A stretch of DNA of 59,181 nt, filler included, from Nemertoderma westbladi (lineage: Eukaryota; Animalia; Xenacoelomorpha): the NCBI GenBank assembly GCA_032718475.1. It is 2 parts of 2 records of this genome, joined end to end, with 100 filler letters (N's around TTAATTAATTAA, not from the genome) between each part and the next. Parts side by side here need not be neighbours in the genome. Positions count along the whole stretch, not along the records: positions 1 to 31,313 come from JAUCBJ010004008.1; 1 more part is not named here. One strand, given 5' to 3'. Position 1 is the stretch's first letter; each line of letters begins with the position of its first letter. Shown here in pieces: positions 939 through 32,383 of this stretch. The translations under genes were made by a program, and so were the position numbers. The notes under the pieces are model-generated. The model did no database searches, had not been told where the DNA came from, and worked only from the letters and a program-made list of their open reading frames with translations.

Positions 939-2072
939 ATGATATTTTGGTCAATAATTTATATTGTCATTGAGATTATCAACGTTGCCTTCGCTACCGA
1001 AACCGATAGCGTTAGGGCCATCCTCGAGGATCCAACACGTTACAATAAAATGCGAATCCCGAAATCCGGAAGAGATCCTCTTAGTATAGGAGTTAACATT
1101 GGGATATCTCACGTGGGTGATATCAACATAGTCACAATGACCTACAGTATAGCCTTCTATCTCAGAATATTCTGGCAGGATACCAGACTTATATCTACGG
1201 AATTGAATGATAATCAATCTACATCTTATAACCCCGAGATATTAAAGTCGCTATGGATACCGAGTATACAAATAAAGAACGCACTACAGTCGCAACCTTT
1301 TCTCAACCCGGAGACAAACGATAACATTATGTTGATAATTTCTCACCAAGGAGAAATATCATTATCAGTAAAGGTTGACACTAAAGTACGCTGTCTATTT
1401 GATCTAACAGACTACCCATTCGACACTCAAAACTGTAAATTAATTCTAGAAAGCCATTCTTATAACGAAAGCGATGCCAAACTTTATTTTACAAATGGCG
1501 GCGTAGAAGTTATTCAAGAACTCAATAACGAGAATGTCCCTTCCAATGAGTACAAGCTAATAACAACTTCCGACTTACACACGACTTACGGTACCGGAAA
1601 CTATGAAATGTTTGGTAATTATTCACTTCTTACTGTCGAATTTAAATTGGTACGTTTATTTACGAGCCAATTAGTGACCGTTTTCTTACCCCTAAACTCG
1701 ATTATCCTGCTATCTTATCTAACCTTTTGGATCGATCGCAAGGCTTTGGCAGCTCGCAGTGCTTTCGGCATAAATATAACATTAACGATGATGACACTGA
1801 TAGTAAACACGTATCACGACGTACCGAAAGTCCCGTACCTTCGGTCGATCGACGTTGTGTTTACCATCTCTATGGGATTCATGATGGGGTCCCTTATAGA
1901 ATTCGCGGTTGTCATTAATTTGGAGAAAAATTACGCAAAGGGAATTCAGTCGCACAGAAAGAAGATGGTTAATTCCGCGATAGTGGTTGAAAAAATAGCT
2001 AGAATATTGTATCCTGTAGCGTATAGTGTCAGTATGATCATTTACTACTCGATTTATGTTAAAACTTACTAA
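939..2072 (+). CDS. Intronless Cys-loop ligand-gated ion channel subunit, GABA-A/glycine (anion-channel) class, 377 aa
   Basis: Signal peptide; YNKMRIP; FYLRIFWQDTRL; LWIPSI; Cys-loop CLFDLTDYPFDTQNC (C-x13-C); M1 FLPLNSIILLSYLTFWI; M2 AARSAFGINITLTMMTL; PKVPYLRSID + M3 ..IEFAVV; M4 EKIARILYPVAY. Confidence 0.93.
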   Translation: MIFWSIIYIVIEIINVAFATETDSVRAILEDPTRYNKMRIPKSGRDPLSIGVNIGISHVGDINIVTMTYSIAFYLRIFWQDTRLISTELNDNQSTSYNPEILKSLWIPSIQIKNALQSQPFLNPETNDNIMLIISHQGEISLSVKVDTKVRCLFDLTDYPFDTQNCKLILESHSYNESDAKLYFTNGGVEVIQELNNENVPSNEYKLITTSDLHTTYGTGNYEMFGNYSLLTVEFKLVRLFTSQLVTVFLPLNSIILLSYLTFWIDRKALAARSAFGINITLTMMTLIVNTYHDVPKVPYLRSIDVVFTISMGFMMGSLIEFAVVINLEKNYAKGIQSHRKKMVNSAIVVEKIARILYPVAYSVSMIIYYSIYVKTY

Positions 2073-4083: not shown

Positions 4084-5530
4084 CTACTACTACTACTAGG
4101 ATCGGCATGCTGCATTGCAGCTGCATTTTTAAGAATTATGTGCTTGTCGACAAAATTGCGCCGCCACAACTCCCTTTGCTAGATTATCCGCATCTTCAAG
4201 GCCAGTGTCATTTAAGATGCGTCTCAAGAAAGTCATGGGCTGTCCACCATGCTTATTCACTCCATGAGACTCCCAAAGCACAAGATTATGCATTGGCTGG
4301 TCTTCACGGCGATAGCAATGTCCTGCAAAGCGGAGGCGATTTTGTTCTAGTGTCAAGCTTGGAGGAATCAATGAGACACCTCCAATGTTATATAGTGTCT
4401 GGTTGGAGATGTGTGCATTGTACTTGACACAGTGAACCCGGCGTAGCATTCTTGTGAATGTACCACCCAGAGATTTGGTGTCCTCAACAGTTAGAGCCCA
4501 GCATGGACTCCCATAGAGGAGTACTGGAACTACTGCTGCTCTAAATAAACGGACCTTAAGTTTCCGATTAATTCTCGGTGACTTCCAAATCCAGGAAAGC
4601 CTATTCAAAGCTGCCCATGCCTTTTTATTAAGTATTCGAATGTCCTCACCTGACTTCCGGATCCATGATCCCAGGTAACAGAAGTCGTCCACATGCTCAA
4701 GCATACCATCCTTTGACCTTATGCTCATCCGGTCAGAGACTAGCTGAGAACTTTCAAAGTTAACTGTCAAAATTTTGGTCTTTTGGAGTTAATAAAAAGA
4801 CCAACACAAGCAGCCTGTTCTAATGAGCTCAGGAGCCGTTGGGGTCCCTCTAGTGATTCTGAGAGTACGCCTAAGTCATCAGCAAAGTCTAGATCAGTTA
4901 GGTACTTGGCAGGAGGGGGGTTTCCATTACCCCATCATCATTATGATGATATAAGGACATGCGTAGAACATGAATAAGAACTATGATGAATTATGAATAA
5001 GAATGGTGCAAGTGTGTCACCCTGGAGGACACCCACTAATACTTTGTGGGTCGATCTGTGTTGACATAAGTGATCTGTGTCAGTCATCAATATCCACACA
5101 AATGACGTCGAACCATCGCATAGTAATCTGATTGCTGCAATAATTTCATCAGGAATCACATATTATGAAAGTATGCTGAACAAACGTGAACGAGAGACTG
5201 AATCAAAGGCCTTGAAGAAGTCAACAAAGATAACAGCCAGATGTATGTCTTTCCTTATTTGATAACTCTTCAATTACCCTTTAAGCACCAGAATGGGCTC
5301 CATGATCCTACGAACTTTGTGGTTGGTACCCATTCTGCTTTCCACGAAGCTGTCTAATGGATCCCTGATGCGATTTAATATGAGTATATCATCTTTGCTG
5401 CAAACGAGATTCCACGAAAAGAACCATAGTGTTAGATTGCCCTTCTTGAAAACTGGCACCAAGTTATTTTTTTCATTTCTTGCGAGTCCGTTCGTTCTTG
5501 ACATGCCTATTATGATGGGGTGTATGACAC
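4084..5530 (-). mobile_element. Degraded, 5'-truncated RTE-like LINE (reverse transcriptase remnant)
   Basis: Minus-strand fragments in RT order: LVPVFKKG, FVDFFKAFDSV (~5190-5230), GVLQGDTLAPFLFII, YLTDLDFADDL (~4870-4905), FCYLGSWI, KVRLFRAAVVPVLLYGS, RLRFAGHCYR. Frameshifts and stops present. The 3' (TAG)n tail appears as CTACTACTACTA at 4084-4098. Confidence 0.88.
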
Positions 5531-6297: not shown

Positions 6298-6981
6298 TTA
6301 TGTGCCCTCTTCGTCATCATTTATCGCCCTTGTAAATACCATTTGAGTTTGACTTCCACAGCGGACTCTGTACCACACGGTGGTTGCAACCACAAGGTTT
6401 GCGAATAAACATATGAACCCCAAAGCCGCAGCAGATTGGACCAATCCGCTCGTGTGGACAGTCTTCCAATCAGAGTAAACACGTGCGGATACCACGTTTA
6501 GATTGACCAATAGTGATGAAGCAATTACATAAAAAGCAGATAGTATTAAACTTAGGGAAATCTCAACCCAATGCCATGGTATAACCATAATTTCTATTAA
6601 TGAAGTCAAGTTTATGAAAACAAAACCGAATGATATACCAATATTAAGAACGCTTACAAATATATACACGCGAATTCTCTCGTTCATTGGTAATTCTAAC
6701 ATACTGTTTCCATGGTAACGTCCAATCAACGAGTTGATTAGTCCAATAACCCCACAAGTTAATGACACTAGTTTAAAACAACCGGGTACAGTCTGTATGT
6801 AAGACGGATTGTATCGCAGACGAATTATGTTTGGAGGGTCATTTAATCTCAGATAATCCGGGTGTAACAAAGAAGGTTTGCGAGATTGTTGTTGATACGG
6901 CGTTCTTGTTTCATAACTAGTTGTTGATTTGCTGGAGTCGTTGCCTTGGTGACATAGTGGTTGGTCTCCAGTCTGGTTCAT
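6298..6981 (-). CDS. MARVEL-domain tetraspan membrane protein (CMTM/plasmolipin-like), intronless, 227 aa
   Basis: YIQTVPGCFKLVSLTCGVIGLI matches the MARVEL start motif (Y..T.PG.LK); four hydrophobic helices; PWHWVEI..S..LSAFY.IAS and SAAALGFI motifs. Confidence 0.82.
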   Translation of the reverse strand: MNQTGDQPLCHQGNDSSKSTTSYETRTPYQQQSRKPSLLHPDYLRLNDPPNIIRLRYNPSYIQTVPGCFKLVSLTCGVIGLINSLIGRYHGNSMLELPMNERIRVYIFVSVLNIGISFGFVFINLTSLIEIMVIPWHWVEISLSLILSAFYVIASSLLVNLNVVSARVYSDWKTVHTSGLVQSAAALGFICLFANLVVATTVWYRVRCGSQTQMVFTRAINDDEEGT

Positions 6982-7159
6982 TCTTATTTGAAAACGTCCA
7001 ATAGTAAACGTCCAATGGTATATAATATAGTATATTTAATGGTTTATAATTAGCAATCTTAATACTGTAATAAAGAATAATTATAAAATTAACATAATTA
7101 ATATTCGCGAAATAAAATTCAGCAGTGAATAGGGTTGGGGTTGGTGCGCGAAAAAAATT

Positions 7160-14383: not shown

Positions 14384-15163
14384 TTACAAAAAGTTTGCGG
14401 TTGGTTTGCTGAAGCCGTGTAGATGTGGCGACGAAAAAAATATAGAACCACAAGCGACGAGGAAAAAGCAAAGGTAACTCACGAGCAGAATCCTATCGAG
14501 GCACATCGCGACGAACTTCCATTCTCCTTTCCCTCGCTCGAACTCCTCCTGGGTGCGGAACGTGTATGCGATGTAGTTAACCGATATCAAGGCGCGATGC
14601 AGGTCCGGGGACAGTATGTCCTGCGTACGCGGTCGTCGCACGCGATCCTTCGGGAACTCCAACAGCACCTCCCGTCCCCACGGCGACCGGCGCGGCATGA
14701 TGACGTCATCGTCAGTCAGCTGTTCCCACAAGGCGTCGCATCCGGCTGGCTGTGGGATCACGTTGATCACGTGTTCCATGGACGGCCGTTTCAGCCCGAG
14801 GAACCGAGGTAAAGGACCGTTGGTTAGGAACATATGGTGTAGCCAATCGGGCATCGCTTGGTTGCTAGGGTTACGCCAATATATGTTGATGACTAACACG
14901 CTGACAGCAATACTGGCGCCGACCATACACATAGACGAAATAATGAAGGTAATAATGAGAGGCACACTTGTCGCGGTGCGTGGTACGTATTCCGATGTGA
15001 TAATTAGAGGCAAAGTCAGGGAAACCAATAAGGATATAGATATTCCCATCTTCTCCCCGCTCTCGCAGGGCAAATAGAATACCAAAACAGATAGTATCAT
15101 TGTGATTATAACTGGTAGTAACAGGTTGACTTCGTAGAACAATGGTTTCCGTCGCAAATGAAG
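14384..15163 (-). CDS. Nicotinic-acetylcholine-receptor-like Cys-loop subunit, exon 4 of 4 (M1-M4); gene = join(25703-25491, 22824-22571, 15710-15494, 15163-14384), 487 aa
   Basis: Acceptor TTTTAACAG|CTT; LHLRRKPLFYEVNLLLP, LPCESGEKM, VPRTATSVPLI, MPDWL, EWKFVAMCLDRILL. Confidence 0.93.
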   Translation of the reverse strand, partial: LHLRRKPLFYEVNLLLPVIITMILSVLVFYLPCESGEKMGISISLLVSLTLPLIITSEYVPRTATSVPLIITFIISSMCMVGASIAVSVLVINIYWRNPSNQAMPDWLHHMFLTNGPLPRFLGLKRPSMEHVINVIPQPAGCDALWEQLTDDDVIMPRRSPWGREVLLEFPKDRVRRPRTQDILSPDLHRALISVNYIAYTFRTQEEFERGKGEWKFVAMCLDRILLVSYLCFFLVACGSIFFSSPHLHGFSKPTANFL

Positions 15164-15493
15164 CTGTTAAAATAAAATAAATATTTATATATCATAACAA
15201 CTTTTCGCGGGATTAATGGGATAACTCTTTATAGACATTTCCGCGTAACCTGAACATTGTCTGAGGTTTATCACGGAAATTAATAATTGAAAGTAATCGT
15301 TTCTTTTAAACAATTGTTAAATAAAGCATAAGTGGATGCCGCAATGCCGGTAAAATGTTATACAAACCAAAGTTTATAAATTCGCGGCATATAGTTTGCG
15401 CCGTGAAATTTCGCGTTTTAAAGTTTCTGAGTGAAAAAAATAAACAAAACGAACACTTGCGCCACTGATGTGCCAACAAAAGGAGTAACCAAC

Positions 15494-15710
15494 CATGTAA
15501 GTGATAGCACTGAATTCATCATCCCTCCCAGGTTGCTTCCATACCCTATTAACCGCAACCATATGAACTATTTCCCATTCAACACTCTCGTAATAAGAGT
15601 TTCTGTATATCGGGGGGTTGGCGGTCGATGATATCAACAGCAGTTGTTCACGAGTAAACTTCCACGAAACAAAGGTTATGTTACATATTTGTTCGTCGTA
15701 GGGAAAGAAT
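15494..15710 (-). CDS. nAChR-like subunit exon 3 (second half of Cys-loop, loops B and C)
   Basis: TTATAG|A TTC TTT CCC TAC GAC GAA CAA ATA TGT completes CQIDAEFFPYDEQIC (C-x13-C) with exon 2 in phase 2; SWKF, ESVEWEI; donor ATG|GTTGGT, phase 0. Confidence 0.9.
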
Positions 15711-16436
15711 CTATAATTACAAATAATTTAGTCGTCAAATGTCTGTGTAATGTACAACGTAGGTGGTGGGAAAACATCATTTAGTTAGAAACAATACAAT
15801 TTCCTTATCGAGTGTCAGATTACTAGCATGAGCTATCTGCAGTTCAGTGGCAAGAGTATTTATATCTCCTAGAAATATATTCAGTATAATATACTGACAT
15901 TCTCATTTTATTTATAAACTTTCATATTTTTTATTATTATTACTTTTATAATTTTTTTACTAAACAAAATTTGGGGAATCTATGTCAATAATATGTACCG
16001 GTATATAGATACATGAGCGAGTATTGAGTAACACTGAACATATTACCAGTGATGTTATACACAATGTTCGTCAGGAAAGCTGAGAGCTCAGTCGAAGTTT
16101 AGAGGAGGCCAAAGGTTAGATGTATAGTAGCTGGACCTGCAGTTCTAATGAAGCATCGGGTTTAATAAAATCATCTTTCCAAGCAATAATAATAAATTAT
16201 TGGCCTGGTGATGATATTTGAACTTCAGCAATAAATTATTATTAGGACCGGGACACAATCTAGACTAGAGATTGTTGGGTTTAAAACAAATTAAAGTTAA
16301 CAAAAACATAACAAATTATTTATTTAAATATACATGAAAAATAGATAATTACAGCGATAAAAACAATAATTAATTGCATTGCACAAGCAAAACCATAAAA
16401 CATCCGCGACGAAGCCACACGGTTACATAAATTATG

Positions 16437-18014
16437 TTACGGTCCATTCCAATGCCGAACTCTGAGTATCTTAAACTCTTCGTTTTCTACACGCAGTGTT
16501 ACTTTACGCGTTGGTTTCGTTTTAACGTTTTGTTTCGGTTTCGGCGGTAGGATTCTATTAGTAACAGAGTTCTGTTTACTTTCTATAGGAGAATGTTTGC
16601 CGCCATCGGTACTAGTGTCGTCGCAATGAATGGAAACCGTAACTTTTCTTATTCGAAAATAAAACATTGAACTGCCAACTAAAATCATTAGTAAAATAAA
16701 CTTCCAGGAAAAAATTAAATAAAATAATGTGAGAATTCGCTGGGATTGTAAAATAAAAAATATTGCACGTATAATGAGACAGGTCAACGAGGTGGGAATA
16801 TATTCGGAATAGGGTAACGTTACCATCGATGTAACGTTGGTTACAGAGACCAGGGCTGTTGATGTAACAACTACTGGGATCCTATGGGGATAGTAGCTTA
16901 GTCTGAGGTCGTTATGGTTGTCCAGGTTACCGAATGCTGCTAAGGTCCATTGAGGCAACTGTGGGTCACTGGTGGATGAATTAGCGCCCATCTTCACCTC
17001 CTGGTCTGCCGCCCAGTAATGGTAGAGCTGATTGTTCAGACAGGACTGGAGTTTTCTACGACACCGAGCTGGCTGACTAACGAAGCCCTTATTGGAGACC
17101 CCAATAACGTCGCATTCGTCTCCGTAAAGGTTCACTAAATCTCGACTTAGTAGCAAGATATTCCAGGAAGTTATTTCTACTTGAGGGAAGTCGCAACTTC
17201 CAGTTCCTCTACACAAAATATCCGCTGGAATAATAACGTATTTATTGTGCAGGAACAAACTTGGAGGGAAAAACATTGAGTTAACCCAAATACTATCACT
17301 CGAGTTCGATTGAGTGACAGATAATCCTTCGACTTTATTGGAGGTAACGACGGCCGTAAAGATATTGTACCTCAACGGGTGTTCGGTTAGACAATGTATC
17401 GAGTGCTTCTTTAGGGGAGCTCGACATAAATAGCGATCTCTGTCGGCAACCAAACAGTCGCAAGCGAATCCCATAGGAACCTCGCTCTTACTCACTCCGC
17501 AGTAGCGTTCTATAGCGAGGGAATTATTGTCCTCTCTTTTTGCGTCGTGAACTTCCTCGGAAGCTCCATAGGTTACGGATTCTACCGGCAATAAGTTTAT
17601 TTCTTGCGATACGGAGCCGGTTAATTGCCCGTGGATTGGTTGGAATTGGGGATGGATTAGTTGGAGACGGAATGGTAACATAGCAACGGAGACATAGGCG
17701 ATATTAGCGAGACTGTCAGTGTCAGACAGCAGGAGTTCAACTCGAGAAGATTGCTGGACAATTTCAGACTTCCATTGACAACTTATTGTAACAAGACAAT
17801 AACTGCCCTCAGCTGTGACTAAATTACAACCGGGAGCAAAAGCAACCATGCCGGTGTCGTTAGTGGGTATCGTAAACGTAGACGAAGGCCTACCGGTACC
17901 GGTCGTAGGGACAATATCTTCTGCGACGTATGTATAAATCAGGAAGCCAATGAACGCAAATAAACATGATATTATAATCAGCGGAAGTCCAAAGGGAAGT
18001 ACCTTGAGATTCAT
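16437..18014 (-). CDS. HAP2: Divergent HAP2/GCS1 (fusexin, class II fusogen)-like protein, intronless, 525 aa, nested in intron 2 of the nAChR-like gene
   Basis: ILLLSRDLVNLYGDECDVIGVSNKGFVSQPARCRRKLQSCLNNQLYHYWAAD matches the HAP2-GCS1 core (G.EC.KIGV...F..Q...C......CL.NQL). Upstream GFACDC and HCLT...RYNIF match the HAP2 GFCC.C and HCL.....Y..F motifs. N-terminal hydrophobic segment, C-terminal TM and basic tail; AATAAA (minus) at 16319-16324. Confidence 0.8.
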   Translation of the reverse strand: MNLKVLPFGLPLIIISCLFAFIGFLIYTYVAEDIVPTTGTGRPSSTFTIPTNDTGMVAFAPGCNLVTAEGSYCLVTISCQWKSEIVQQSSRVELLLSDTDSLANIAYVSVAMLPFRLQLIHPQFQPIHGQLTGSVSQEINLLPVESVTYGASEEVHDAKREDNNSLAIERYCGVSKSEVPMGFACDCLVADRDRYLCRAPLKKHSIHCLTEHPLRYNIFTAVVTSNKVEGLSVTQSNSSDSIWVNSMFFPPSLFLHNKYVIIPADILCRGTGSCDFPQVEITSWNILLLSRDLVNLYGDECDVIGVSNKGFVSQPARCRRKLQSCLNNQLYHYWAADQEVKMGANSSTSDPQLPQWTLAAFGNLDNHNDLRLSYYPHRIPVVVTSTALVSVTNVTSMVTLPYSEYIPTSLTCLIIRAIFFILQSQRILTLFYLIFSWKFILLMILVGSSMFYFRIRKVTVSIHCDDTSTDGGKHSPIESKQNSVTNRILPPKPKQNVKTKPTRKVTLRVENEEFKILRVRHWNGP

Positions 18015-18719
18015 ATCACCATAGGCCTATACTGCTATATCATCAGTATATTTAATAATTAACAGTTCCATCGCCTCATTTGTTAGCCTAACCGCCAAAT
18101 CCTGGTGGTATGGTGTCGTTTAGTGCTGTAGTGTTAGTGTAAACATATTTTAAGTTTGATCATAAATCTTCTGATACCGGCAGACCGGCAAACCGGTAAT
18201 CATCATGGCTGGTTTCTGCAACTTGGCACTTGCAGATTGGGAACACAGCTGCACAGAATATCTGAATATTGCAGTATCATAATATTTCAGTATAGCAGTT
18301 AGTACTGCAGCAGTACTACAGTCTGTCAGTAGTAGTGGTGGGGTGGTGAGTGTGAGTTGTGAGTGGCAGGTATCCAGTACAGTGCAGTACACAGTATGTA
18401 GGTATGCATTGCATAGGTACATCAGGCTCTATCGTAAATCCGCACCCGTACCCTTGATAAAAACCGTTCCCCCCTCGCCAAATCTTGTGGGAACGCTCCA
18501 AAAATTTAACAATCATTTTTCAACCTATATTGACCAACTTAAAACAAAAAAAATCATCTTTTTCCGCTTCGCGCAGCACGAAACATATTCATTAATTTTT
18601 GTTTTTTTCTGAATTTTACTTTTTTTCAAACGTCTAATGCAAAGTATTTTACTCAATTTTCCTCCAACTAAAAAGGTATGTAGACACCCTGACCTGTTGT
18701 TTTGATCATTAATGGTTAA

Positions 18720-19370
18720 ATATCGTTTATAGTTTTGGTTAGAAAAGCCTGCCTCTGTAACCTGTTTCTTTCCCTCAATTGGTATCAATATCGTTTATTG
18801 TATTGATTCAGATCAGCCTGCCTCCATAACCTGTTCCTTTCCCTCAATTGGTAACAATATCGTTTCTTGTTTCGGTTAGAAAAGCCTGCCTCTGTATAAC
18901 CTATCGTTTATTGTTTTGGTTATAAAAGCCTGCCTCTGTAATTGGTAACAATATCGTTTATTGTTTTGGTGAGATAAGCCTGCCTCTGTAACCTGTTCCT
19001 TTCCCTCAATTGGTAACAACATCGTTTATTGTTTTGGTTAGAAAAGCCTGCCTCTGTAACCTGTCAATATCGTTTATTGTTTTGGTTATAAAAGCCTGCC
19101 TCTGTAACCTGTCAATATCGTTTATTGATTGGTGAGATAAGCCTGCCTCTGTAACCTGTTCCTTTCCCTCAATTGGTAACAACATCGTTTATTGTTTTGG
19201 TTAGAAAAGCCTGCCTATATAACCTGTCAATATCGTTTATTGCTTTGGTTAGAAAAGCCTGCCTCTTTAACCTGTTCCTTTCCCTCTATTGTTAACAATA
19301 TTGTTTATTGTTTTGGTTAGAAAAGGCTGCCTCTGTAACCTGCTCCTTGCCCTCAATTGGTAACAATATT
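18720..19370. repeat. Tandem array (~50-68 bp units, ATCGTTTATTGTTTTGGTTAGAAAAGCCTGCCTCTGTAACCTG), left arm of a large inverted structure
   Basis: Direct reading; reverse-complement array at 21478-21995; isolated copies near 2280 and 23540. Confidence 0.85.
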
Positions 19371-19777
19371 ATTAATATTATATAAAAAAAGGCTGCCACC
19401 GATGCTGAATCGCGAAATACCTTATACGGTAAAAAAATATAAAACAGTTTTGAAAAAATAATTTAAATTTTTTTCCCGATTTTTTCCCGTAATCCCAAAC
19501 TTCCCGAAAATATCAGAGTGTTTTCCCACAGAGAGCCGGCTAGTAACTGAATTGTTAAAAAAACTGAGTCTTTTCCCAGAGAGACCTGTTTTTCGAGCAA
19601 AAAAATTATATCCACGGATACGGAGTAACCGTATTTGTAACCGTAATTGTGTACTAAATTTTAAGAAATCCTTTGATAACAATGTCTATAACAGTATAAA
19701 GCAATACCAAACCAACGGACTTCGCTAGCGAAGTCGGATGAAGGGGTGTGCCAGTCCTGTAGTATAGTAGTCCTTGG

Positions 19778-20980
19778 TAGGAACACATCATGAGTTGGTG
19801 CTTGGGATTGGTTAATAGACTAATATTTGATTGGACGTTGAAATCATGTAAGGAATGGAGATAGGGGTCGAACTAGTGTAAGGTTTTATTTTTACTTACT
19901 GTAGATTGCAGGTTGAGACAAAGTGTTCCAAACGCTGTAAGGAATGGAGAAATTGGGTGAAATCATGTAGGGGTTATTATACCAACAGTATTAGAAGAGT
20001 AGGCTAGCAGTAGCAGTTGACATTAGCCTAGTCAGTAGGCCTATAATAGAACATTGTTGTTATGGTATATACAGGGTTGCATACTTATGCTAAAACAATT
20101 GGAACATTGACTACTAGGACAGTAGGATCTAGGGATACATTCCTTTTTACACAGAGTTCAAATGTTGGACTGTAGGTTTGCTTAGGAATAGTCTGTCTGC
20201 TATTCGTCTGCAGCCAATTGCACTAGCGCGCCGACGAGTAGCTCTTACAACATGAAGTAAAACAGATGCCAGCTGGCCGACCTCATGGTACTTGATATGT
20301 CTCAACGCGCACAAACGCGCCGTAGAAACCCGTCGATAAACATCAATGCAAATCGAATAAATGCTAAACATCATTTGCAACATTTATTGAGTGTATTATT
20401 GAGAGTTTATTTCATTGGAATATTTATCTTTACAAATTGTAAAATGCTTTTAAATATGAACATCAAATGAAAAAATTTCAATATTAAATACTATCAATAA
20501 AGCTAGCTACTCTATTACTACAATCTTTTCCATCAGAGAAATCAAGGAAAATGCTCTGTAAAACGATACCTTATACTTCGTTATTTGTTATATTGTTATT
20601 CGTATATATTTTTACTGTTACCTGACAATGAATCGTTTAATAGGCAGATAATCCTTACATGATTTCTCCCAATTTCTCCATTCCTAGCGTTTGGAACACT
20701 TTCTACTTCTCTTTTTATTATAGGCCTACTGACTAGGCTAATGTCACCTACTGCTGCTAGCCTAGTCTTCTATAGTACTGTTGGTATAATAACCCTTACA
20801 TGATTTCACCCATTTTCTCCATTGGAACACTTTGTCTCTATGTACCTGCCATATCTACAGTAAGTGAAAGAAACCCGTACAATAGTTCGACCCCTCTCCA
20901 TTCCCTACATGAATTCAACATCCAATCAAAATATAGCTCATTAACCAATCCCCCAAGCACCACTTCATGATGTGTTCCTA
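19778..20980. mobile_element. Palindromic element with ~300-bp degenerate inverted arms
   Basis: TAGGAACACATCATGAG..GGGGTCGAACTA (19778-19875) is inverted at 20882-20980; TAGCCTAGTCAGTAGGCCTATAATA is inverted at 20715-20740. Confidence 0.75.
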
Positions 20981-21477
20981 GTAGTGTAAGAATTGGGAAT
21001 ACGCTACCGGTACATCATAAGCGCTGTCTGTCTGTAGCTCAAGGACTTGCTGCAGCTGTATAGGTTGATAGGGCCTACAGGCTACAGGCTACAGCTAGGC
21101 CACAACAGCATAATACAAAGGCAGTGATTTTTTATGTCCTTTTATTTGACTTTTTTTGTCCTTTTTTTTTACGAATTATGCATAATGACTTTTGTTGTCC
21201 TTTTAATGACTTTTGTTGTCCTTTTAATGACTTTTATTGTCCTTTTAATGACTTTTTATGTATGTATTTCTTCAAACTGTCAGACTGCTGATTTCTGGAC
21301 TGTCAGACAGTTGATTTCACTATGCCTGTGCCAAAACATTCCATGATTCCATGATTTATAGACTATGAGATAGATTTCCATATGCGCCTGTGGTAAAAAG
21401 ACTCTATATTTAATAGTTTGTGGTTGTTGTCGATATAATCGATTACCACATGACGTAGCAAAACACTCATTTTATAG

Positions 21478-21995
21478 CCAAAAACAATTACCAATTGATG
21501 GAAAGGAGCAGGTTAAGGCGGAGTTTTCTAACCAAAACAATAAACAGTCACTTTACCAAATCAGGGAAAGGAGCAGGTTACAGAGACGGGATTTTCTAAC
21601 CAAAACAATAAACGATCACTTAACTAATTGAGGGAAAGGAGCAGGTTACAGAGGCGGGATTTTCTAACCAAAACAATAAACGATCACTTAACTTATTGAG
21701 GGAAAGGAGCAGGTTACAGAGGCGGGATTTTCTAACCAAAACAATAAATGATCATTTAACTAATTGAGGAAAAGGGACAGGTTACAGAGGCGGAATTTTC
21801 TAACCAAAACAATAAACGATCACTTAACTAATTGAGGGAAAGGAGCAGGTTACAGAGGCGGGATTTTCTAACCAAAACAATAAACGATCATTTAACTAAT
21901 TGAGGGAAAGGGGCAGGTTACAGAGGCGGGATTTTCTAACCAAAACAATAAACGATCATTTAACTAATTGAGGGAAAGGAGCAGGTTACAGAGAC
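21478..21995. repeat. Tandem array (~68 bp, AACCAAAACAATAAACGATCACTTAACTAATTGAGGGAAAGGAGCAGGTTACAGAGGCGGGATTTTCT), inverse of 18720-19370
   Basis: Direct reading. Confidence 0.85.
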
Positions 21996-22570
21996 GATAA
22001 AACTAATACAGTAATAGGCCTAAATTATGTGAAAGGTATATCCACATTTTCCACAATCCTGCAATCCAGTTTGCCCTATCAATTATTTAAAATTTATTAG
22101 CACAACCGGTAGGCCTACCATTACCGTATTTAAATGGTAGGCTACACAGTAGGCCTATAGCAGTACCGGTGCCGGTACCGGTACTAAAATACAGAAATAC
22201 CTGCTTTATACCTACATCTGTACATACAATACAGCAAAATAGTGCTATATATACTAATACCGGTACTGATAGCCTGAGAGAACAGCAGTAGAGAAACCGG
22301 TAGCATGGAACCTAACATTAGACTTTTGGAGGACATAAAAAATAAAAAAAAAAGGACAAAAAAAGGATTTAAACGGACAATAAAAATTATTGCGTAATAC
22401 AAATACATAGGCCGTTGGACTGACAGTAATGCGGTCTGAGAGCTGTACGTACAGTTGTAAGTGGATTGCAGTTAGTAAGAAAGACAGAAAGAGAGTGACT
22501 TGACTATTGACTACATTTCCTAGAAAATCATATAAAAAACGACCTCAATGTGAATATATAATCTACTTAC

Positions 22571-22824
22571 TCGGCATCTATTTGGCATTTGAGTTTGAAT
22601 ATTCCCGGTGGACTCCAGTAGACTGTATTCCCAGGTTGTATGAGTGCGCGACATTGGAATGAGAAGGTATTTTGTCCATCAATAGAGTCTAAAACTATAA
22701 CAGGAGGCTTCCATATTTCTTCTATTAGATAATGGAAATATTTGTCTTGGAGTTTTGTATTATTCCATTCGGTAAACCTTTGGTCCTTCCAGGTAATTGT
22801 TGGATACAACGACATTGTGATCCT
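22571..22824 (-). CDS. nAChR-like subunit exon 2
   Basis: Acceptor CTTCCTCCAG|AGG; RITMSLYPTITWKDQRF, IWKPPVIV, VYWSPPGIFKLKC; donor GA|GTAAGT, phase 2. Confidence 0.9.
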
Positions 22825-23104
22825 CTGGAGGAAGATGAACAATAATTTAACAGTTTAGTTATTATTAAATTGGGGAGGCTGTGTGGGCTGCAGCTCACGG
22901 CCCAAGCGACTGAACCGGCCCCTCAAAAACTTACTAGGCTGTAGCTTTGGGGCCCCGTCTTGAAAGGGGCCCCAAATAACCGATGAGTGGATGAGTAATA
23001 CAAAAGTAATCTTTAAAAGGCCCAACTCAGTACCTAATTTCCATTTTATATCACAAAGTTATAAACAGTATTTTTAAAATATTTCCGATCGCTTCGCTCG
23101 CGTT

Positions 23105-23670
23105 TATAACGCCCATGTGAAGAATACCAGGATTTCACTTTTCGGTCGACTTTTTATTGGAATTTTATATATGAAGAAGCAGCAGCCTGAAGTAGCAGCT
23201 TGGTCTAGTGGTGACATTACTGTGCTTCCGATTAGGGAGCCCGGGTTCGATCCCTAGATGGGGCAGCACTGTTTGGGCACAGTGCGTTAAATGCTGCAGC
23301 CTAGCCCAACCCCGACTTTCATCCTTCAGTGGTCGATAAATGGGAACCAAGGTAACTTGGGAAACAGAAGGGTTTACTGTGGAAGATCACCCATGGTGGT
23401 GAACAGGCATTCCTTGGCTTAACGAGCCTAAAAGATTCTCCCATTCATATATGAAGATTTTTTATTTTTTTTTAATTTATCTTTATTAAGTGTTTTATAG
23501 CGCTTATTTCTGTCTTATAACCTGTACATATACTAATTTGTTTATTGTTTTGGTTAGATTCAGCCCTTCTGTAACCTGTATTTTTGGTATTCTGGTATTC
23601 TTCACATGGGAGTAACTGCAAAGTGAAATATAACGGCAGAAAGTCTGGTATACTTCACATGGACCGTTTA
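23105..23670. mobile_element. Small MITE-like element (CCCATGTGAAGAATACCAG inverted repeats) hosting a SINE
   Basis: CCCATGTGAAGAATACCAG at ~23112 is inverted at ~23592-23610 and ~23645-23662. Confidence 0.55.
23178..23446 (+). mobile_element. tRNA-derived SINE with a Deu/Nin-like central domain
   Basis: A box TGGTCTAGTGG, B box GGTTCGATCCC, then CTTTCATCCTTCAGTGGTCGATAAATG resembling the Deu/Nin SINE core; 11-bp direct repeat ATATATGAAGA at 23167-23177 and 23447-23457. Confidence 0.8.
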
Positions 23671-24986
23671 TAATATGAAACGAACTATAAAGTCTAGGTG
23701 TAAAGTCTAAACTATATAAAGCCCTTGGTGTAGCGGTATAATCGAATAGTGGAATAATTGAAAATCAGAGGTTTATAAATTTTACTGACTGACAGACATC
23801 TATGTTTCCTCTGTCATCCGCTACAGTAGGAGGAATGACTAATCCCATTAATTTAACTGCTGTGCAAAGCCTCACAAACACACGGAAGGAATCCCTAAAT
23901 TTGTGTTACGTTATCGTTTATTGTTAGTCTTATAGAGGTATTGTAATAGAAATTAAATTCGTCCAAATGGCCAATTTTGACTGATAATACGCCATGTTGG
24001 GACTAATAAGTTTATATCTTGGTTAAGAATAAGGGCTATTTTACTATATTTCAGTAAAATTTATTCCAGTAAAAGTTTGTCTATGTAGATTATAAAAATG
24101 GATACAAAAAATAAAAAATGAGTCAATAACATAGGCAACACTTTTCAGATTTGTAGAACAATTTTGAGGGGGGGGGGGGGGGGGGGGGTGGGGGTGGGGG
24201 TGGGGCAGCTACCTGAATAAAGACACTATATTCCACGACATGGAATAGAGTAGAGTTTAATATAGCCAGAATATGGAGTATTTTTAATATGGAATTATAT
24301 TGCGTCCAGCGAATTAAAGAAAAAGTAAAAAAAAATGTTGCTCTAAATTAGTAACCGTCAATTTCATTATTATCATATTATTTTACTTTTTTTCGCTGAG
24401 CACGATAAACTACATCATTGTCATTGTATAAGAATCAGCTGCGCCCCCGCAGGCCTTGCGCCCCCCCTGGAGCGCAGGGATGCTGCGACCCCCCCCCCCC
24501 CCCCACCCCCCCCTCCTCTAAGACGGACAATGCCATCAAAAGTCAGTATTTTTAGTTTCATATTTTAGTTTAGTTTTAGTCAGTAACATTAACCTGCTAA
24601 CCTGGGTAGGCCTACTAAATTACAGTACATATTTTATAGTATTTATGTTATTTTTTTCCGCCGGAAATGGGCCTTTTTATTATTCAGCCCACAGCCCTGA
24701 TAACCTTGATCCGGCCCTGGGGGGGGGGGGGGGGGAGAAGTTTAGTGGGAGTAAATGAGTACCGGTAAAGAGGTGCAGGTGGTGTTTTAGTAACGATTTC
24801 TATAATCGAATAATCGAAAGTTTACTTTAACTTGCCGTCAATTTGCGCCACTATCTCATTCTGAGAGATTAAGCTTCTGAGTGGGGTACGTAGGCTTAAA
24901 ATAATTAATTTCTATCAAAATCAGGGAACTTTATAAGTTTAAATGAGTCGAATGAAGATGCTCAAAAGATATGCTGACGTGAGATA

Positions 24987-25363
24987 ATGTCAGCTGGTGC
25001 TGTAGAATAAAGAAGCGCGGACAGTTAATGTCACCTGGTGCTGTAGAATAAAGAAGCGCGGACAGTTAATGTCACCTGGTGCTGTAGAATAAAGAAGCGC
25101 GGACAGTTAATGTCACCTGGTGCTGTAGAATAAAGAAGCGCGGACAGTTAATGTCACCTGGTGCTGTAGAATAAAGAAGCGCGGACAGTTAATGTCACCT
25201 GGTGCTGTAGAATAAAGAAGCGCGGACAGTTAATGTCACCTGGTGCTGTAGAATAAAGAAGCGCGGACAGTTAATGTCACCTGGTGCTGTAGAATAAAGA
25301 AGCGCGGACAGTTAATGTCACCTGGTGCTGTAGAATAAAGAAGCGCGGACAGTTAATGTCAGC
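24987..25363. repeat. Homogeneous 41-bp minisatellite (GTCACCTGGTGCTGTAGAATAAAGAAGCGCGGACAGTTAAT), ~9 copies, in nAChR intron 1
   Basis: Direct reading, period 41. Confidence 0.95.
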
Positions 25364-25490
25364 TAATAATTAGCACGGCGACGGCATGCGTGATACAGTA
25401 TTCATGCAAATATATTTCGTTATTAATAAATTCGTGTCAGACCGAGGCATGCGTTTTTATACAAGAGTATCCATGGGAAACAGAACTAAC

Positions 25491-25703
25491 CTCCTCTTTC
25501 TCTTCAATGTCGACAATTTGTGTTAAGGTTATATCAAATGTTACGGGAATTTGATCAGTAGTTGGGCGAATGTCTTTGTTATAGTTCTTGAAATGTCCTC
25601 TATAAACCGCCAAAGCGTAATGGTCATCGTGTTCCGGTCCAGTGTAACCATTAGCAACATCAACCCAAACAAATAATAATGTCACTGCAATTATAACTTC
25701 CAT
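25491..25703 (-). CDS. nAChR-like subunit exon 1 (signal peptide, N-terminus)
   Basis: MEVIIAVTLLFVWVDVANG signal peptide; NYNKDIRP, VTFDITLTQIVDIEEKEE; donor GAG|GTTAGT, phase 0. Confidence 0.88.
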
Positions 25704-25895
25704 CGATGAGATTAATTGGGTTCCGTCTGTGAATATTTCCCGCTACTAAACATTTCCTGAACCTATCTAACTAATAATTAATTTCGTATCCAATATGTTA
25801 TTTGCCTAATAATTTACTTTTCCAATAACAAATTTATTTACTGAGTTATATATCCAATAGATACGGTACTAGTCAAATAAATTAGTTATCCAATG

Positions 25896-28800
25896 AGGTA
25901 CTTATCCAATAAGTTACTTATCCAATAAGTTACTTATCCAATAAGTTACTTATCCAATAAGTTACTTATCCAATAAGTTACTTATCCAGTAAGTTACTTA
26001 TCCAATAAGTTACTTATCCAGTAAGTTACTTATCCAATAAGTTACTTATCCAATAAGTTACTTATCCAATAAGTTACTTATCCAATAAGTTATTTATCCA
26101 ATAAGTTACTTATCCAATAAGTTACTTACCCAATAAGTTACTTATCCAATAAGTTACTTATCCAATAAGTTACTTATCCAATAAGTTATTTATCCAATAA
26201 GTTACTTATCCAATAAGTTACTTATCCAATAAGTTACTCATCCAATAAGTTACTCATCCAATAAGTTACTTATCCAATAAGTTACTTATCCAATAAGTTA
26301 CTTATCCAATAAGTTACTTATCCAATAAGTTACTTATCCAATAAGTTACTTATCCAATAAGTTACTTATCCAATAAGTTATTTATCCAATAAGATACTTA
26401 TCCAATAAGTTACTTATCCAATAAGTTACTTATCCAATAAGTTACTTATCCAATAAGTTACTTATCCAATAAGTTACTTATCCAATAAGTTACTTATCCA
26501 ATAAGTTACTTATCCAATAAGTTACTTATCCAATAAGTTACTTATCCAATAAGTTACTTATCCAATAAGTTACTTATCCAATAAGTTACTTATCCAATAA
26601 GTTACTTATCCAATAAGTTACTTATCCAATAAGTTACTTATCCAATAAGTTACTTATCCAATAAGTTATTTATCCAATAAGATACTTATCCAATAAGTTA
26701 CTTATCCAATAAGTTACTTATCCAATAAGTTACTTATCCAATAAGTTACTTATCCAATAAGTTACTTATCCAATAAGTTACTTATCCAATAAGTTACTTA
26801 TCCAATAAGTTACTTATCCAATAAGTTACTTATCCAATAAGTTACTTATCCAATAAGTTACTTATCCAATAAGTTACTTATCCAATAAGTTACTTATCCA
26901 ATAAGTTACTTATCCAATAAGTTACTTATCCAATAAGTTACTTATCCAATAAGTTACTTATCCAATAAGTTATTTATCCAATAAGATACTTATCCAATAA
27001 GTTACTTATCCAATAAGTTACTTATCCAATAAGTTACTTATCCAATAAGTTACTTATCCAATAAGTTATTTATCCAATAAGTTACTTATCCAATAAGTTA
27101 CTTATCCAATAAGTTACTTATCCAATAAGTTACTTATCCAATAAGTTACTTATCCAATAAGTTACTTATCCAATAAGTTACTTATCCAATAAGTTACTTA
27201 TCCAATAAGTTACTTATCCAATAAGTTACTTATCCAATAAGTTACTTATCCAATAAGTTATTTATCCAATAAGATACTTATCCAATAAGTTACTTATCCA
27301 ATAAGTTACTTATCCAATAAGTTACTTATCCAATAAGTTACTTACTTCCAATAAGTTACTTATCCAATAAGTTACTTATCCAATAAGTTACTTATCCAAT
27401 AAGTTACTTATCCAATAAGTTACTTATCCAATAAGTTACTTATCCAATAAGTTACTTATCCAATAAGTTACTTATCCAATAAGTTACTTATCCAATAAGT
27501 TACTTATCCAATAAGTTACTTATCCAATAAGTTACTTATCCAATAAGTTACTTATCCAATAAGTTACTTATCCAATAAGTTACTTATCCAATAAGTTACT
27601 TATCCAATAAGTTACTTATCCAATAAGTTACTTATCCAATAAGTTACTTATCCAATAAGTTACTTATCCAATAAGTTACTTATCCAATAAGTTACTTATC
27701 CAATAAGTTACTTATCCAATAAGTTACTTATCCAATAAGTTACTTATCCAATAAGTTACTTATCCAATAAGTTACTTATCCAATAAGTTACTTATCCAAT
27801 AAGTTACTTATCCAATAAGTTACTTATCCAATAAGTTACTTATCCAATAAGTTACTTATCCAATAAGTTACTTATCCAATAAGTTACTTATCCAATAAGT
27901 TACTTATCCAATAAGTTACTTATCCAATAAGTTACTTATCCAATAAGTTACTTATCCAATAAGTTACTTATCCAATAAGTTACTTATCCAATAAGTTACT
28001 TATCCAATAAGTTACTTATCCAATAAGTTACTTATCCAATAAGTTACTTATCCAATAAGTTACTTATCCAATAAGTTACTTATCCAATAAGTTACTTATC
28101 CAATAAGTTACTTATCCAATAAGTTACTTATCCAATAAGTTACTTATCCAATAAGTTACTTATCCAATAAGTTACTTATCCAATAAGTTACTTATCCAAT
28201 AAGTTACTTATCCAATAAGTTACTTATCCAATAAGTTACTTATCCAATAAGTTACTTATCCAATAAGTTACTTATCCAATAAGTTACTTATCCAATAAGT
28301 TACTTATCCAATAAGTTACTTATCCAATAAGTTACTTATCCAATAAGTTACTTATCCAATAAGTTACTTATCCAATAAGTTACTTATCCAATAAGTTACT
28401 TATCCAATAAGTTACTTATCCAATAAGTTACTTATCCAATAAGTTACTTATCCAATAAGTTACTTATCCAATAAGTTACTTATCCAATAAGTTACTTATC
28501 CAATAAGTTACTTATCCAATAAGTTACTTATCCAATAAGTTACTTATCCAATAAGTTACTTATCCAATAAGTTACTTATCCAATAAGTTACTTATCCAAT
28601 AAGTTACTTATCCAATAAGTTACTTATCCAATAAGTTACTTATCCAATAAGTTACTTATCCAATAAGTTACTTATCCAATAAGTTACTTATCCAATAAGT
28701 TACTTATCCAATAAGTTACTTATCCAATAAGTTACTTATCCAATAAGTTACTTATCCAATAAGTTACTTATCCAATAAGTTACTTATCCAATAAGTTACT

Positions 28801-30513
28801 TATCCAATAAGTTACTTATCCAATAAGTTACTTATCCAATAAGTTACTTATCCAATAAGTTACTTATCCAATAAGTTACTTATCCAATAAGTTACTTATC
28901 CAATAAGTTACTTATCCAATAAGTTACTTATCCAATAAGTTACTTATCCAATAAGTTACTTAGCTTATCCAATAAGTTACTTATCCAATAAGTTACTTAT
29001 CCAATAAGTTACTTATCCAATAAGTTACTTATCCAATAAGTTACTTATCCAATAAGTTACTTATCCAATAAGTTACTTATCCAATAAGTTACTTATCCAA
29101 TAAGTTACTTATCCAATAAGTTACTTATCCAATAAGTTACTTATCCAATAAGTTACTTATCCAATAAGATACTTATCCAATAAGTTACTTATCCAATAAA
29201 TTACTTATCCAATAAGTTACTTATCCAATAAGTTACTTATCCAATAAGTTACTTATCCAATAAGTTACTTATCCAATAAGTTACTTATCCAATAAGTTAC
29301 TTACTTATCCAATAAGTTACTTACTTATCCAATAAGTTACTTACTTATCCAGTAAGTTACTTATCCAATAAGTTACTTATCCAATAAGTTACTTATCCAA
29401 TAAGTTACTTATCCAATAAGTTACTTATCCAATAAGTTACTTATCCAATAAGTTACTTATCCAATAAGTTACTTATCCAATAAGTTACTTATCCAATAAG
29501 TTACTTATCCAATAAGATACTTATCCAATAAGTTACTTATCCAATAAGTTACTTATCCAATAAGTTACTTATCCAATAAGTTACTTATCCAATAAGTTAC
29601 TTATCCAATAAGTTACTTATCCAATAAGTTACTTATCCAATAAGTTACTTACTTATCCAATAAGTTACTTACTTATCCAATAAGTTACTTATCCAATAAG
29701 TTACTTATCCAATAAGTTACTTATCCAATAAGTTACTTATCCAATAAGTTACTTATCCAATAAGTTACTTATCCAATAAGTTACTTATCCAATAAGTTAC
29801 TTATCCAATAAGTTACTTACTTATCCAATAAGCTTACTTATCCAATAAGTTACTTATCCAATAAGTTACTTATCCAATAAGTTACTTATCCAATAAGTTA
29901 CTTATCCAATAAGTTACTTATCCAATAAGTTACTTATCCAATAAGTTACTTATCCAATAAGTTACTTATCCAATAAGTTACTTATCCAATAAGTTACTTA
30001 TCCAATAAGTTACTTATCCAATAAGTTACTTATCCAATAAGTTACTTACTTATCCAATAAGTTACTTATCCAATAAGTTACTTATCCAATAAGTTACTTA
30101 TCCAATAAGTTACTTATCCAATAAGTTACTTATCCAATAAGTTACTTATCCAATAAGTTACTTATCCAATAAGTTACTTATCCAATAAGTTACTTACTTA
30201 TCCAATAAGTTACTTATCCAATAAGTTACTTATCCAATAAGTTACTTATCCAATAAGTTACTTATCCAATAAGTTACTTATCCAATAAGTTACTTATCCA
30301 ATAAGTTACTTATCCAATAAGTTACTTCTATCCAATAAGTTACTTATCCAATAAGTTACTTATCCAATAAGTTACTTATCCAATAAGTTACTTATCCAAT
30401 AAGTTACTTATCCAATAAGTTACTTATCCAATAAGTTACTTATCCAATAAGTTACTTATCCAATAAGTTACTTATCCAATAAGTTACTTATCCAATAAGT
30501 TACTTATCCAATC
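25896..30513. repeat. 4.6-kb satellite of 16-bp unit TATCCAATAAGTTACT (~290 copies)
   Basis: Direct reading; degenerate monomers from ~25785. Confidence 0.97.
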
Positions 30514-31413
30514 AGCAAAAACCGCCACGCCTAGCTAGCAGTATTATTTTTACTGCAATCACCAATGCAGCAATGATTTTTACTAAAAAAAACTTTAAAA
30601 AAACATATTAAAAATTTTATAAATTTATAAATTAAAAGCAAAAAAGCAATCAACACTCATTTTATAAGTCCCAAACCAGCAAACAGATGAACTGGTACTT
30701 GTAAAGCTTCCAAGAGTTAATATAAGGCGATATTGCTTCTGGTCTGACAGGCTAATAATAACCGGCCAGTACAATATCCTAATTCCTCACAGTTGGTAGG
30801 CTGAGATATTGGGATACCCAATATAGTCTCAAACTCCATTACCCACCATACCTTTTATATTAAACCCGCCAACCCACCACTACTAGAGACAGAAAGGCTT
30901 ACAACTACACAGACATGGAATGGGGTATTAAAGCACCAGGTAGCTTCACTGGTGTACCATAGCTAAATATATGTAATGTTGTTTATAATAATTTGAGGTA
31001 ATGTGAACTGACAGGGTCGATATTGCTTGTGGAGCTTGTCAAAATGATACCTCGGGTAATTAGGTTTAGGTAGAGTGAGTTATAGCGAAGAGTACTAAAT
31101 TTTTATTTTATTATTTAATAAAATATTGAGAAATTAAATCGCCTTTCTAGTCTAGACTAAAACATAAATATATTTGCTTCATTGTGAGTAAATCTATAGC
31201 ACTTTAACGGGATTATTACAATCGCAGTCGTTTTATAATCCGAGCGAGTAGAATTAGTAGAGCGTAAGCGAAACGTTTTAGTGATTATTGTAAAATAAAA
31301 TGTAAAGTGATTTNNNNNNNNNNNNNNNNNNNNNNNNNNNNNNNNNNNNNNNNNNNNTTAATTAATTAANNNNNNNNNNNNNNNNNNNNNNNNNNNNNNN
31401 NNNNNNNNNNNNN

Positions 31414-32383
31414 AAATATTACTATTCGGGTGAACCTTTTGGAGTTCGTGAGAATAAAATGAGCCCTTTATTATAGCTCCGGTGCTGTCCTTAATATCGA
31501 ACATTACCGCTGGTACTCTATCCAACCTAACCCGATGAATAATAAATAATTCACGTGTCCATTGTTCTCGATAGCCTTTAGCAAAAGCAGTACGAACAAT
31601 AGATAATCGTACTGTATCTCCAACTTTAAATTTTATTTTCTTGTGATTTATCTGTCTATATTTCCCATATAATCTATTCATTAATTCAGTTTCATTAAAT
31701 TTATTAACTTCAATGGGAGTCATTTTTATTGTCCTATGATACGACCTATTATAAGCCGAGATAAGCTTAGGTAAAATTTTTATCCAAATATTATTTCCCC
31801 TCTGGGTGAAAATTTTGAACATCTTTGTTTTTAATGTGCGATTGAATCTCTCAACAATAGCCGCCTTATTCACAGAGTACATTACGTAATACTGTATACC
31901 TAACGTATCTAAATATTTCCTTACAGATTTATTTAGAAACTCAGACCCTTGATCAGTGGCGATTCTGTTTGGTTTTCCTTTCTGGAATATTTTTTGCAAT
32001 ATACTAATAATTTCATCACCCTTTTTTGTTTTCATAGCATAGCCAAAAGCAAGCCGACTGAAGGCATCAATGCATGTTAATATATAGTTATAATTATTAT
32101 TTTGTGACTTATATTGCTGCATATCCACCAGATCTATCATATATATATCTTTTATGCCTCCCGTAAATATTTTAGATGTTGGATAATGTTGTCTACGTGG
32201 AGCGTGAAGGGTGTATGTCTTTTGTCCGCTCAACCATTTCTGGGCTTGCGTCGGTTTGATGTTTGCAGCTTTTGCTAATTTTGCAACACTTGCAAATCCT
32301 GCGGGGGATGAAGGATCTAAATAAATTCTTAACAGTTTTTTGTCTAAGCTTCGGCTTAAAATCGGTTTCATCTTGCGAGGCAT
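31414..32383 (-). CDS. Polinton-type retroviral-like (rve) DDE integrase, C-terminus lost in N gap
   Basis: IYLDPSSPAGF..WLSGQKTYTLH; YMIDLVDM (D), IATDQGSEF (D), VERFNRTLK (E); AYNRSYHRTIKMTP; KFKVGDTVR; KGYREQWTRELF; GSFYSHELQ. Confidence 0.92.

Follow-up and report, generated by a model that had tools for sequence, protein, structure and literature searches.

A HAP2-derived reading frame in a nicotinic-receptor intron of Nemertoderma westbladi appears to lack domain III and to keep a membrane anchor

Results

A HAP2-derived frame inside a receptor gene

A stretch of Nemertoderma westbladi DNA (assembly GCA_032718475.1) that is 59,181 nucleotides long including filler, with positions 1 to 31,313 taken from JAUCBJ010004008.1, was analyzed as a single window and contains an open reading frame (ORF) that descends from HAP2/GCS1. 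The frame runs on the minus strand from 18014 to 16437, within an intron of a nicotinic acetylcholine receptor-type subunit gene, and shows no stop or frameshift across 525 codons. The plus strand over 16437..18014 is full of stops, and the exact 525-amino-acid (aa) sequence is absent from the protein collection that was searched.

An earlier note on this DNA had proposed a 525-aa HAP2-like frame, leaving its strand unstated, and most of what it described was borne out. The frame itself is there, as are all of the motifs quoted (GFACDC at residue 182, HCL at 207, GDECDVIGVS at 298, QPARC at 314, and SCLNNQL at 324). The long N-terminal hydrophobic segment is seen in windows starting at residues 1-18 (peak hydropathy, 2.63), and the C-terminal transmembrane region is seen in windows starting at 426-437 (peak, 2.29), with a basic run after the anchor; a weaker hydrophobic stretch occupies windows starting at 404-418. 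The short distance of about 80-100 aa given between NNQL and the hydrophobic C terminus also stood, at 98 aa from Gln329 to the anchor. The description of the gene as intronless held only as far as the DNA carries a single open frame, which includes an in-frame 84-nucleotide GT..AG candidate intron at 16823-16740 (residues 398-425).

All five N-glycosylation sequons of the ORF precede residue 400. Among 14 proteins compared, none has a longer or more hydrophobic N-terminal segment (15 windows above 1.6, with 12 in the next protein), and by its sequence it may be either a signal peptide or an uncleaved signal anchor. Just upstream of the start codon, an in-frame stop doubles as a weak AG acceptor (18027-18045, minus strand), making an upstream exon possible.

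Ancestry and conserved residues

Profile and structural comparisons, both proposed by the earlier note as checks, recovered HAP2. PF10699 was the sole Pfam family matched, scoring 77.6 bits where the cut-off is 27.4 (E 1e-21), with residues 255-366 falling on profile positions 230-327 of 515, and six of six PDB sequence matches to E 1 were HAP2 chains. A HMMER search over 1.84 billion representatives returned 40 matches at E <=0.001 (best, 7e-7), none of them close, and those with names were HAP2 or uncharacterized proteins of spiders, insects, scallop, nemertean, hemichordates, red alga, and slime mold. Signature columns were invariant across all rows of an alignment of 33 of these 40 matches (A1). 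Word-indexed homolog searches with the whole protein, residues 250-400, and alignment A1 gave no matches, which reflects low sensitivity, since HMMER found 40. Among metagenome and viral contigs, there were 63 and 6 pattern matches, respectively, none confirmed as a relative. In an atlas search, the best scores were 0.89 and 0.83, under the 0.9 level taken as a lead; the matches were mostly viral fusion glycoproteins, with no HAP2 cluster, and were given no weight.

Two AlphaFold runs, each on a 34-row alignment, agreed on a confident core at about residues 121-385 and on helices at 12-34 and 437-463. Foldseek matches at E <=0.001 were nine HAP2 chains only. Aligned by VIA with 5ow4 (domain II of Trypanosoma cruzi HAP2), the model gave Z 16.2 and a root mean square deviation (rmsd) of 3.7 with 218/237 residues aligned; the second model against 5mf1_B gave Z 16.3 and an rmsd of 2.9 over 192 residues, and the next-best structural family reached only Z 6.6 (VIA), far under the HAP2 matches. 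Because the models were built from an alignment of HAP2 proteins, they are not independent of HAP2. The structural alignments stop at model residue 381-393 (chain residue 376-459), ahead of domain III.

Columns were counted in a second alignment (A2) of the Nemertoderma protein and 33 other rows. R192 is the same in 32/33 rows, Q329 in 33/33, and E145 in 24/33, with 7 gaps; HHalign, unlike A2, shifts the register of the Glu to near residue 153. By alignment, these residues would match the salt bridge between a Glu in strand b and an Arg in the cd loop, together with the invariant Gln, described in Chlamydomonas HAP2 as the R185-E126 salt bridge and the Q379 network (PMC5332557). Mutating the salt-bridge Arg abolishes fusion in Arabidopsis (PMC6089408). 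Eight of ten domain II cysteines are kept (C172, C185, C187, C197, C208, C301, C318, and C325, matching 24-33 A2 rows), and C301, C318, and C325 are the same in all 33.

The tip loop, at 19 aa, is the shortest of 20 compared; the others measure 24-48 aa, except for two insects with 271 and 405. It holds six hydrophobic residues, a count inside the range of 2-11 found in the 17 rows without such inserts, and one aromatic residue. Tip motifs differ widely among HAP2s (PMC6089408). To judge from R192, Q329, E145, C301, C318, and C325, the domain II tip of the query appears constrained despite a branch length of 2.6.

Domain I was much harder to see. Both AlphaFold models have predicted local distance difference test (pLDDT) values of <50 over its region, domain I sub-profiles gave no match to the query, and its domain I segments scored no better than 40 shuffles each. 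The middle domain I segment is shortened relative to HAP2. Arguing against a complete loss of domain I, C73 and C79 fall on conserved HAP2 cysteine columns in A2, and the last domain I strand aligns by eye. The domain I of Saccoglossus was likewise barely detected by the sub-profiles, at -1.3 to 3.0 bits.

A linker too short for domain III

How far the best anchor window lies from the invariant Gln was surveyed in 63 proteins, of which 7 without the motif were skipped and 9 without an anchor above 2.0 were dropped, leaving 47, many of them redundant cluster members. The 98 aa of the Nemertoderma protein compare with 202-243 aa in 42 canonical rows, and the remaining four rows were a fragment, P0018 (64 aa), and three hemichordate models (147, 147, and 199 aa). 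P0018 was excluded as a canonical comparison, being, as judged by eye, a probable intron read-through fragment.

Where domain III and the stem belong, there is a hydrophobic linker of about 34 aa, compared with 138-179 aa in the 42 canonical rows. As domain III measures about 130 aa in HAP2 (PMC5332557), it cannot fit in this linker. Profiles agree with this measurement. A domain III profile trained without the query or hemichordates scored the query at -4.0 bits and nine held-out canonical rows at 56-95 bits, in a set of scores covering 15 of the 63 proteins and in which at least 5 of the 9 held-out rows are closely related to rows used in training. The PF10699 match of the query ends at position 327 of 515, and those of three canonical controls, from a nemertean, a scallop, and a red alga, end at 466, 470, and 514. 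A six-frame search of the window with an earlier domain III profile, which had a Saccoglossus row in training, gave a best match of E 1. Since profiles are just as blind to domain I, the length argument is stronger than the profile argument.

For the genomic frame, then, the linker, the profile scores, and the Pfam end position uphold the suggestion of the earlier note that domain III may be missing, and these comparisons indicate that domain III and also the stem are lost.

The C-terminal frame

The 128 codons that follow residue 397, past the candidate donor at 16823, stayed open in about 1 in 10,000 of 20,000 base shuffles, and a stretch of this length has a probability of 2e-4 given the stop frequency of the flanks; the other two frames contain 10 and 7 stops. 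The C-terminal anchor, with a hydropathy of 2.25-2.29 and a predicted helix at 437-463, is followed by a basic tail and has an intron-like base make-up. Six candidate acceptors follow the donor, and only the one that closes the 84-nucleotide intron opens an exon longer than 27 aa. This exon consists of the anchor and tail; whether the transcript is spliced or not, no domain III results. We infer, as a reasonable reading, that intron DNA supplied the anchor at the time of domain III loss.

Hemichordate models and the tree

RefSeq models without domain III are also present in two hemichordates, Saccoglossus kowalevskii (XP_077868997.1 and XP_006821859.1; P0015 and P0060) and Ptychodera flava (XP_070578829.1; P0009). 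Their domain III profile scores are -3.4, -3.9, and -2.2 bits, respectively, and their PF10699 matches end at position 325 (Saccoglossus) and 357 (Ptychodera) of 515. In place of domain III they have an acidic linker, 83 or 135 aa long, and the anchor is kept. The Ptychodera and Saccoglossus proteins are 35% identical through domain II, the anchor, and the tail, with the acidic linker poorly aligned. Each species has one domain III-less gene among the 40 matches. As gene models, these sequences suggest that such genes persist. Another HAP2-like protein in the set, P0041, has domain III and ends, by eye, in a dockerin-like repeat with no anchor.

In a tree of 35 rows, built without a named cnidarian or sponge row, the Nemertoderma protein forms a long branch of 2.6, sister to 18 animal-type rows (support, 91/70), and the hemichordates nest with spiralian rows. 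In the approximately unbiased (AU) test, neither a union of the query with the hemichordates (p-AU 0.175) nor a position of the query outside the animal group (p-AU 0.385) was rejected. The tree appears compatible with either shared or independent loss of domain III.

Genomic neighborhood

The receptor gene occupies 14384-25703 on the minus strand, in four exons, and is intact, with GT..AG sites and compatible phases (Table 1). Because its exons flank the HAP2-like ORF with GT..AG sites and a profile-consecutive ligand-binding domain, the ORF lies inside intron 2; this nesting is an observation new to this analysis, and the earlier note is likewise silent on the unrecognizable domain I, the very short tip loop and the two lost cysteines, and the hemichordate models that lack domain III. 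Intron 2 splits the C-x13-C Cys-loop of the receptor. As exon 3 shows no vicinal cysteines, this is probably a non-alpha subunit.

Table 1. Features of the HAP2-derived frame and of the receptor gene around it, in window positions
Feature	Position	Strand	Basis
HAP2-derived ORF (P0001), 525 aa and stop	16437..18014	-	Translation, Pfam, PDB sequence matches
N-terminal hydrophobic segment, about residues 7-34	17913..17996	-	Hydropathy; predicted helix 12-34
Expected N-terminal part of domain I, residues 36-120, with C63, C73, and C79	17655..17909	-	Low pLDDT, no sub-profile match
HAP2 domain II and shortened middle domain I segment, residues 121-385	16860..17654	-	Structural alignment, column counts
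Likely last domain I strand and linker of about 34 aa, residues 386-425	16740..16859	-	Alignment; includes candidate intron 16823-16740
C-terminal transmembrane segment, about residues 426-455, then basic residues; T-rich, low GC at third codon positions	16650..16739	-	Hydropathy; predicted helix 437-463
Basic, Pro/Lys-rich tail, residues 456-525, predicted cytosolic	16440..16649	-	Sequence
AATAAA, candidate polyadenylation signal, about 113 nucleotides past the stop	16319..16324	-	Sequence
Host exon 1	25491..25703	-	PF02931 profile 4-44; splice sites
Host exon 2, ends in Cys-loop	22571..22824	-	PF02931 profile 47-129
Host intron 2, 6.9 kb, contains the HAP2-derived ORF on the same strand	15711..22570	-	Exon flanks, splice sites
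Host exon 3	15494..15710	-	PF02931 profile 133-195
Host exon 4, channel domain	14384..15163	-	PF02932 E 2.5e-41; best PDB matches acetylcholine receptor subunits

The nicotinic-type gene and a second Cys-loop receptor gene, of the gamma-aminobutyric acid (GABA)/glycine type, identify the window as animal DNA. The GABA/glycine-receptor-like subunit is a single frame at 933-2072 (plus strand), with a very short intracellular loop and a best PDB match to GABA rho-1 (E 1e-47), and a MARVEL-domain gene at 6298-7035 (minus strand; Pfam E 1.2e-5, under the cut-off) is also a single frame. Since these two other genes of the window are single frames and the neighbors are intron-poor, the lack of introns in the HAP2-derived ORF is not special.

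Repeats are abundant around the receptor gene. An array of a 16-bp unit (25876-30512; 4.6 kb, 287 copies, 97% match) lies directly upstream of its exon 1, and intron 2 carries, upstream of the HAP2-like start, two arrays in inverted orientation (18719-19391 and 21448-22064) that share a related unit of some 68 bp and may be the ends of a foldback-type element. Elsewhere, a fragment at 4129-4788 (minus strand) looks like what we take to be a LINE C terminus, and there are an RVT_1 reverse transcriptase ORF at 41383-43026 and a FLYWCH and MULE transposase ORF at 43709-45223, both on the plus strand. A cluster at 31358-35000 (minus strand) contains an rve integrase interrupted by N gaps, a protein with weak similarity to adenovirus core protein X, a P-loop ATPase with weak similarity to poxvirus A32, a RING-like protein, and an ORF of unknown type; from this gene set, we take it to be Polinton- or adintovirus-like. 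A link between these genes and the HAP2-like ORF was considered and rejected, as they are 13 kb away in the window, past host exon 1 and the 4.6-kb satellite.

Discussion

A HAP2 chain that is anchored in the membrane and has neither domain III nor stem would be expected to remain in a rod-like, extended state. In HAP2, relocation of domain III redirects the stem and anchor to the fusion loops and clamps the trimer (PMC5332557, PMC6327110), and an engineered HAP2 reduced to D1D2, with domain III removed, still assembles the trimer core (PMC9279424). We therefore favor, at a probability of roughly 0.45, a model by analogy with these systems in which the ORF encodes a maintained membrane tether unable to fold back. 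The protein would sit on the cell surface, probably that of sperm, as a fixed rod with its anchor joined near the end of domain I, and perhaps with a second, N-terminal anchor at the same end of the rod. Such a tether would touch the opposing membrane without folding back into a fusion hairpin, and the rod, resembling an extended intermediate, would keep the apposed membrane in place or prime it, leaving another protein to complete fusion. Expression in gametes would be expected from the family, and probably in sperm by analogy with Hydra HAP2 (PMC2766252). The intact frame, the apparent constraint on the domain II tip, and the hemichordate models without domain III speak for a maintained protein. 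So does the cysteine count: of the residues behind the five disulfides conserved in the tip half of HAP2 domain II (PMC9279424), the cysteines at V155 and A184 have been lost, but two new cysteines, C268 and C274, keep the total even, and from this parity we infer that the lost pair and the new pair each represent one disulfide. Without domain III and the full set of disulfides, the protein is not filed as a canonical class II fusogen.

Several observations weigh against this tether. Because domain I, the trimer fulcrum, was recovered neither by the models nor by the sub-profiles, decay may have gone further than the simple removal of domain III. Insertion of the minimal tip into a membrane is doubtful on sequence grounds, as its loop is the shortest of those compared and has a single aromatic residue. 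At the C terminus, GC content at third codon positions (GC3) over residues 426-460 is 5/32 compared with 196/449 elsewhere (p 0.0015, for a segment picked after looking), and the anchor-coding stretch is 43% T, like introns, past a plausible donor at 16823; real host genes in the window have 35-codon windows with GC3 down to 0.12 and 0.18. Fragment P0018 shows that intron read-through can mimic an anchor. Finally, the hemichordate proteins are putative, being gene-model predictions.

The same evidence may be read on a broader scale, as a real and selected class of domain III-less animal fusexins that lost the domain once, in an ancestor shared with hemichordates, or at least twice independently, and that marks a shift of HAP2 from fusogen to an adhesion or priming rod, or to fusion without a class II hairpin. 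We regard this as an unlikely but serious possibility. Were it true, hemichordate HAP2 cited as a conserved fusogen would not be a canonical fusogen. Hemichordates are named among the holders of HAP2, without comment on architecture in the available portions of those papers (PMC5332557, PMC9279424, PMC13601591), and a Saccoglossus accession is listed in PMC6327110.

A domain III-less chain could also act as a decoy or regulator of a canonical HAP2 paralog, entering mixed trimers through its domain I and II core to block or time fusion. The ability of D1D2 alone to form a trimer core (PMC9279424) would permit this, as would a tip whose scaffold is conserved and whose loops are minimal. However, no second HAP2 was found in the 59-kb window, each hemichordate species has a single domain III-less gene among the 40 matches, and with a branch of 2.6 and an unrecognizable domain I, co-assembly with a canonical paralog is doubtful, leaving the decoy an improbable explanation.

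The unrecognizable domain I would also fit decay. In this reading, the gene is a relic or retrocopy of a HAP2 that lost its role and its domain III; reading through into T-rich intron DNA provided something like an anchor, and the frame has stayed open solely through the recency of the decay. Residues 398-460 are intron-like in make-up past the donor, the gene has no introns and shares the strand of the host in which it is nested, and HAP2 has been lost repeatedly in animals (PMC2766252). Yet 525 codons have accumulated neither a stop nor a frameshift, 128 of them past the donor (1e-4 by shuffles, 2e-4 by flank stop frequency), and divergence at most other sites has spared the invariant residues. 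The retrocopy raised in the earlier note is, as a recent event, weakly disfavored in its own right, with no poly(A) remnant beyond a 7-A run about 480 nucleotides downstream and no bracketing direct repeat among 20/24 families, although the loss of poly(A) and target-site duplications would be expected anyway for an old insertion. We consider it improbable that the gene is a relic.

Less easily reconciled with the data is a non-canonical fusogen. Its domain III clamp would come in trans from a separate protein, or its short linker, together with an amphipathic stretch at 404-425, would allow the trimer to tilt and to merge membranes with no hairpin. The anchor and basic tail are kept, as are the residues that correspond to the salt bridge on which fusion depends in Chlamydomonas and Arabidopsis, and HAP2 tip motifs vary widely (PMC6089408). 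Against this, fold-back of domain III is the consensus driving step, no free-standing domain III was found in the 59-kb window, and the tip is minimal; continued fusion by this protein therefore seems quite improbable. Least likely is an incomplete gene model, in which the plausible GT donor just past the end of domain I splices to unseen, highly diverged exons of a canonical HAP2 whose domain III the profile would miss if it had diverged as far as domain I, an artifact of the kind shown by P0018, since only about 720 nucleotides remain before host exon 3, without a minus-strand stop-free segment of 45 aa inside, the best six-frame domain III match in the window is E 1, an in-frame anchor and tail are already present, and of the six acceptors only the 84-nucleotide one yields an exon above 27 aa.

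No natural HAP2 without domain III was found in the literature searched, to which PMC8777248, PMC8784728, PMC13192892, and PMC9259645 brought nothing further, a scope that left outside most subscription papers and the supplement alignments of PMC6327110, which may show the Saccoglossus stem region. A natural, anchored HAP2 that lacks domain III bears on how animals traded HAP2 for other machinery of sperm-egg fusion: it would offer a ready-made test of the need for fold-back, and it may be an intermediate on the way to losing HAP2. It is also a warning that presence/absence maps drawn from the short signature motif include proteins probably incapable of fusion.

Comparison with known systems

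The closest known system is HAP2/GCS1 itself (PF10699; 5MF1, 6DBS, and 6E18 from Chlamydomonas, 5OW3 from Arabidopsis, 5OW4 from T. cruzi, and 7S0K from Cyanidioschyzon), with which the Nemertoderma protein shares the signature, the predicted domain II fold (Z 12-16), the equivalents of E145, R192, and Q329, 8 of 10 domain II cysteines, and a C-terminal anchor with a basic tail. It differs in having no domain III or stem, an unrecognizable domain I, the shortest tip loop, and a longer N-terminal hydrophobic segment. It is also a single frame in the intron of another gene, whereas sponge and cnidarian HAP2 genes share introns (PMC2766252). Other fusexins, including archaeal Fsx1 (7P4L), EFF-1 (4OJD), and the viral class II proteins, show a distant likeness of fold, with Z up to 6.6.

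The hemichordate models resemble the Nemertoderma protein in being without domain III and in retaining the anchor, but they keep all of the tip cysteines, have a longer tip loop, and share a long, conserved tail that is absent from it. The nearest experimental model of the ectodomain is the engineered D1D2 of Cyanidioschyzon (PMC9279424), from which domain III was likewise deleted; unlike the Nemertoderma protein, that construct is soluble, has an intact domain I and hydrophobic loops, and was assayed for trimer formation.

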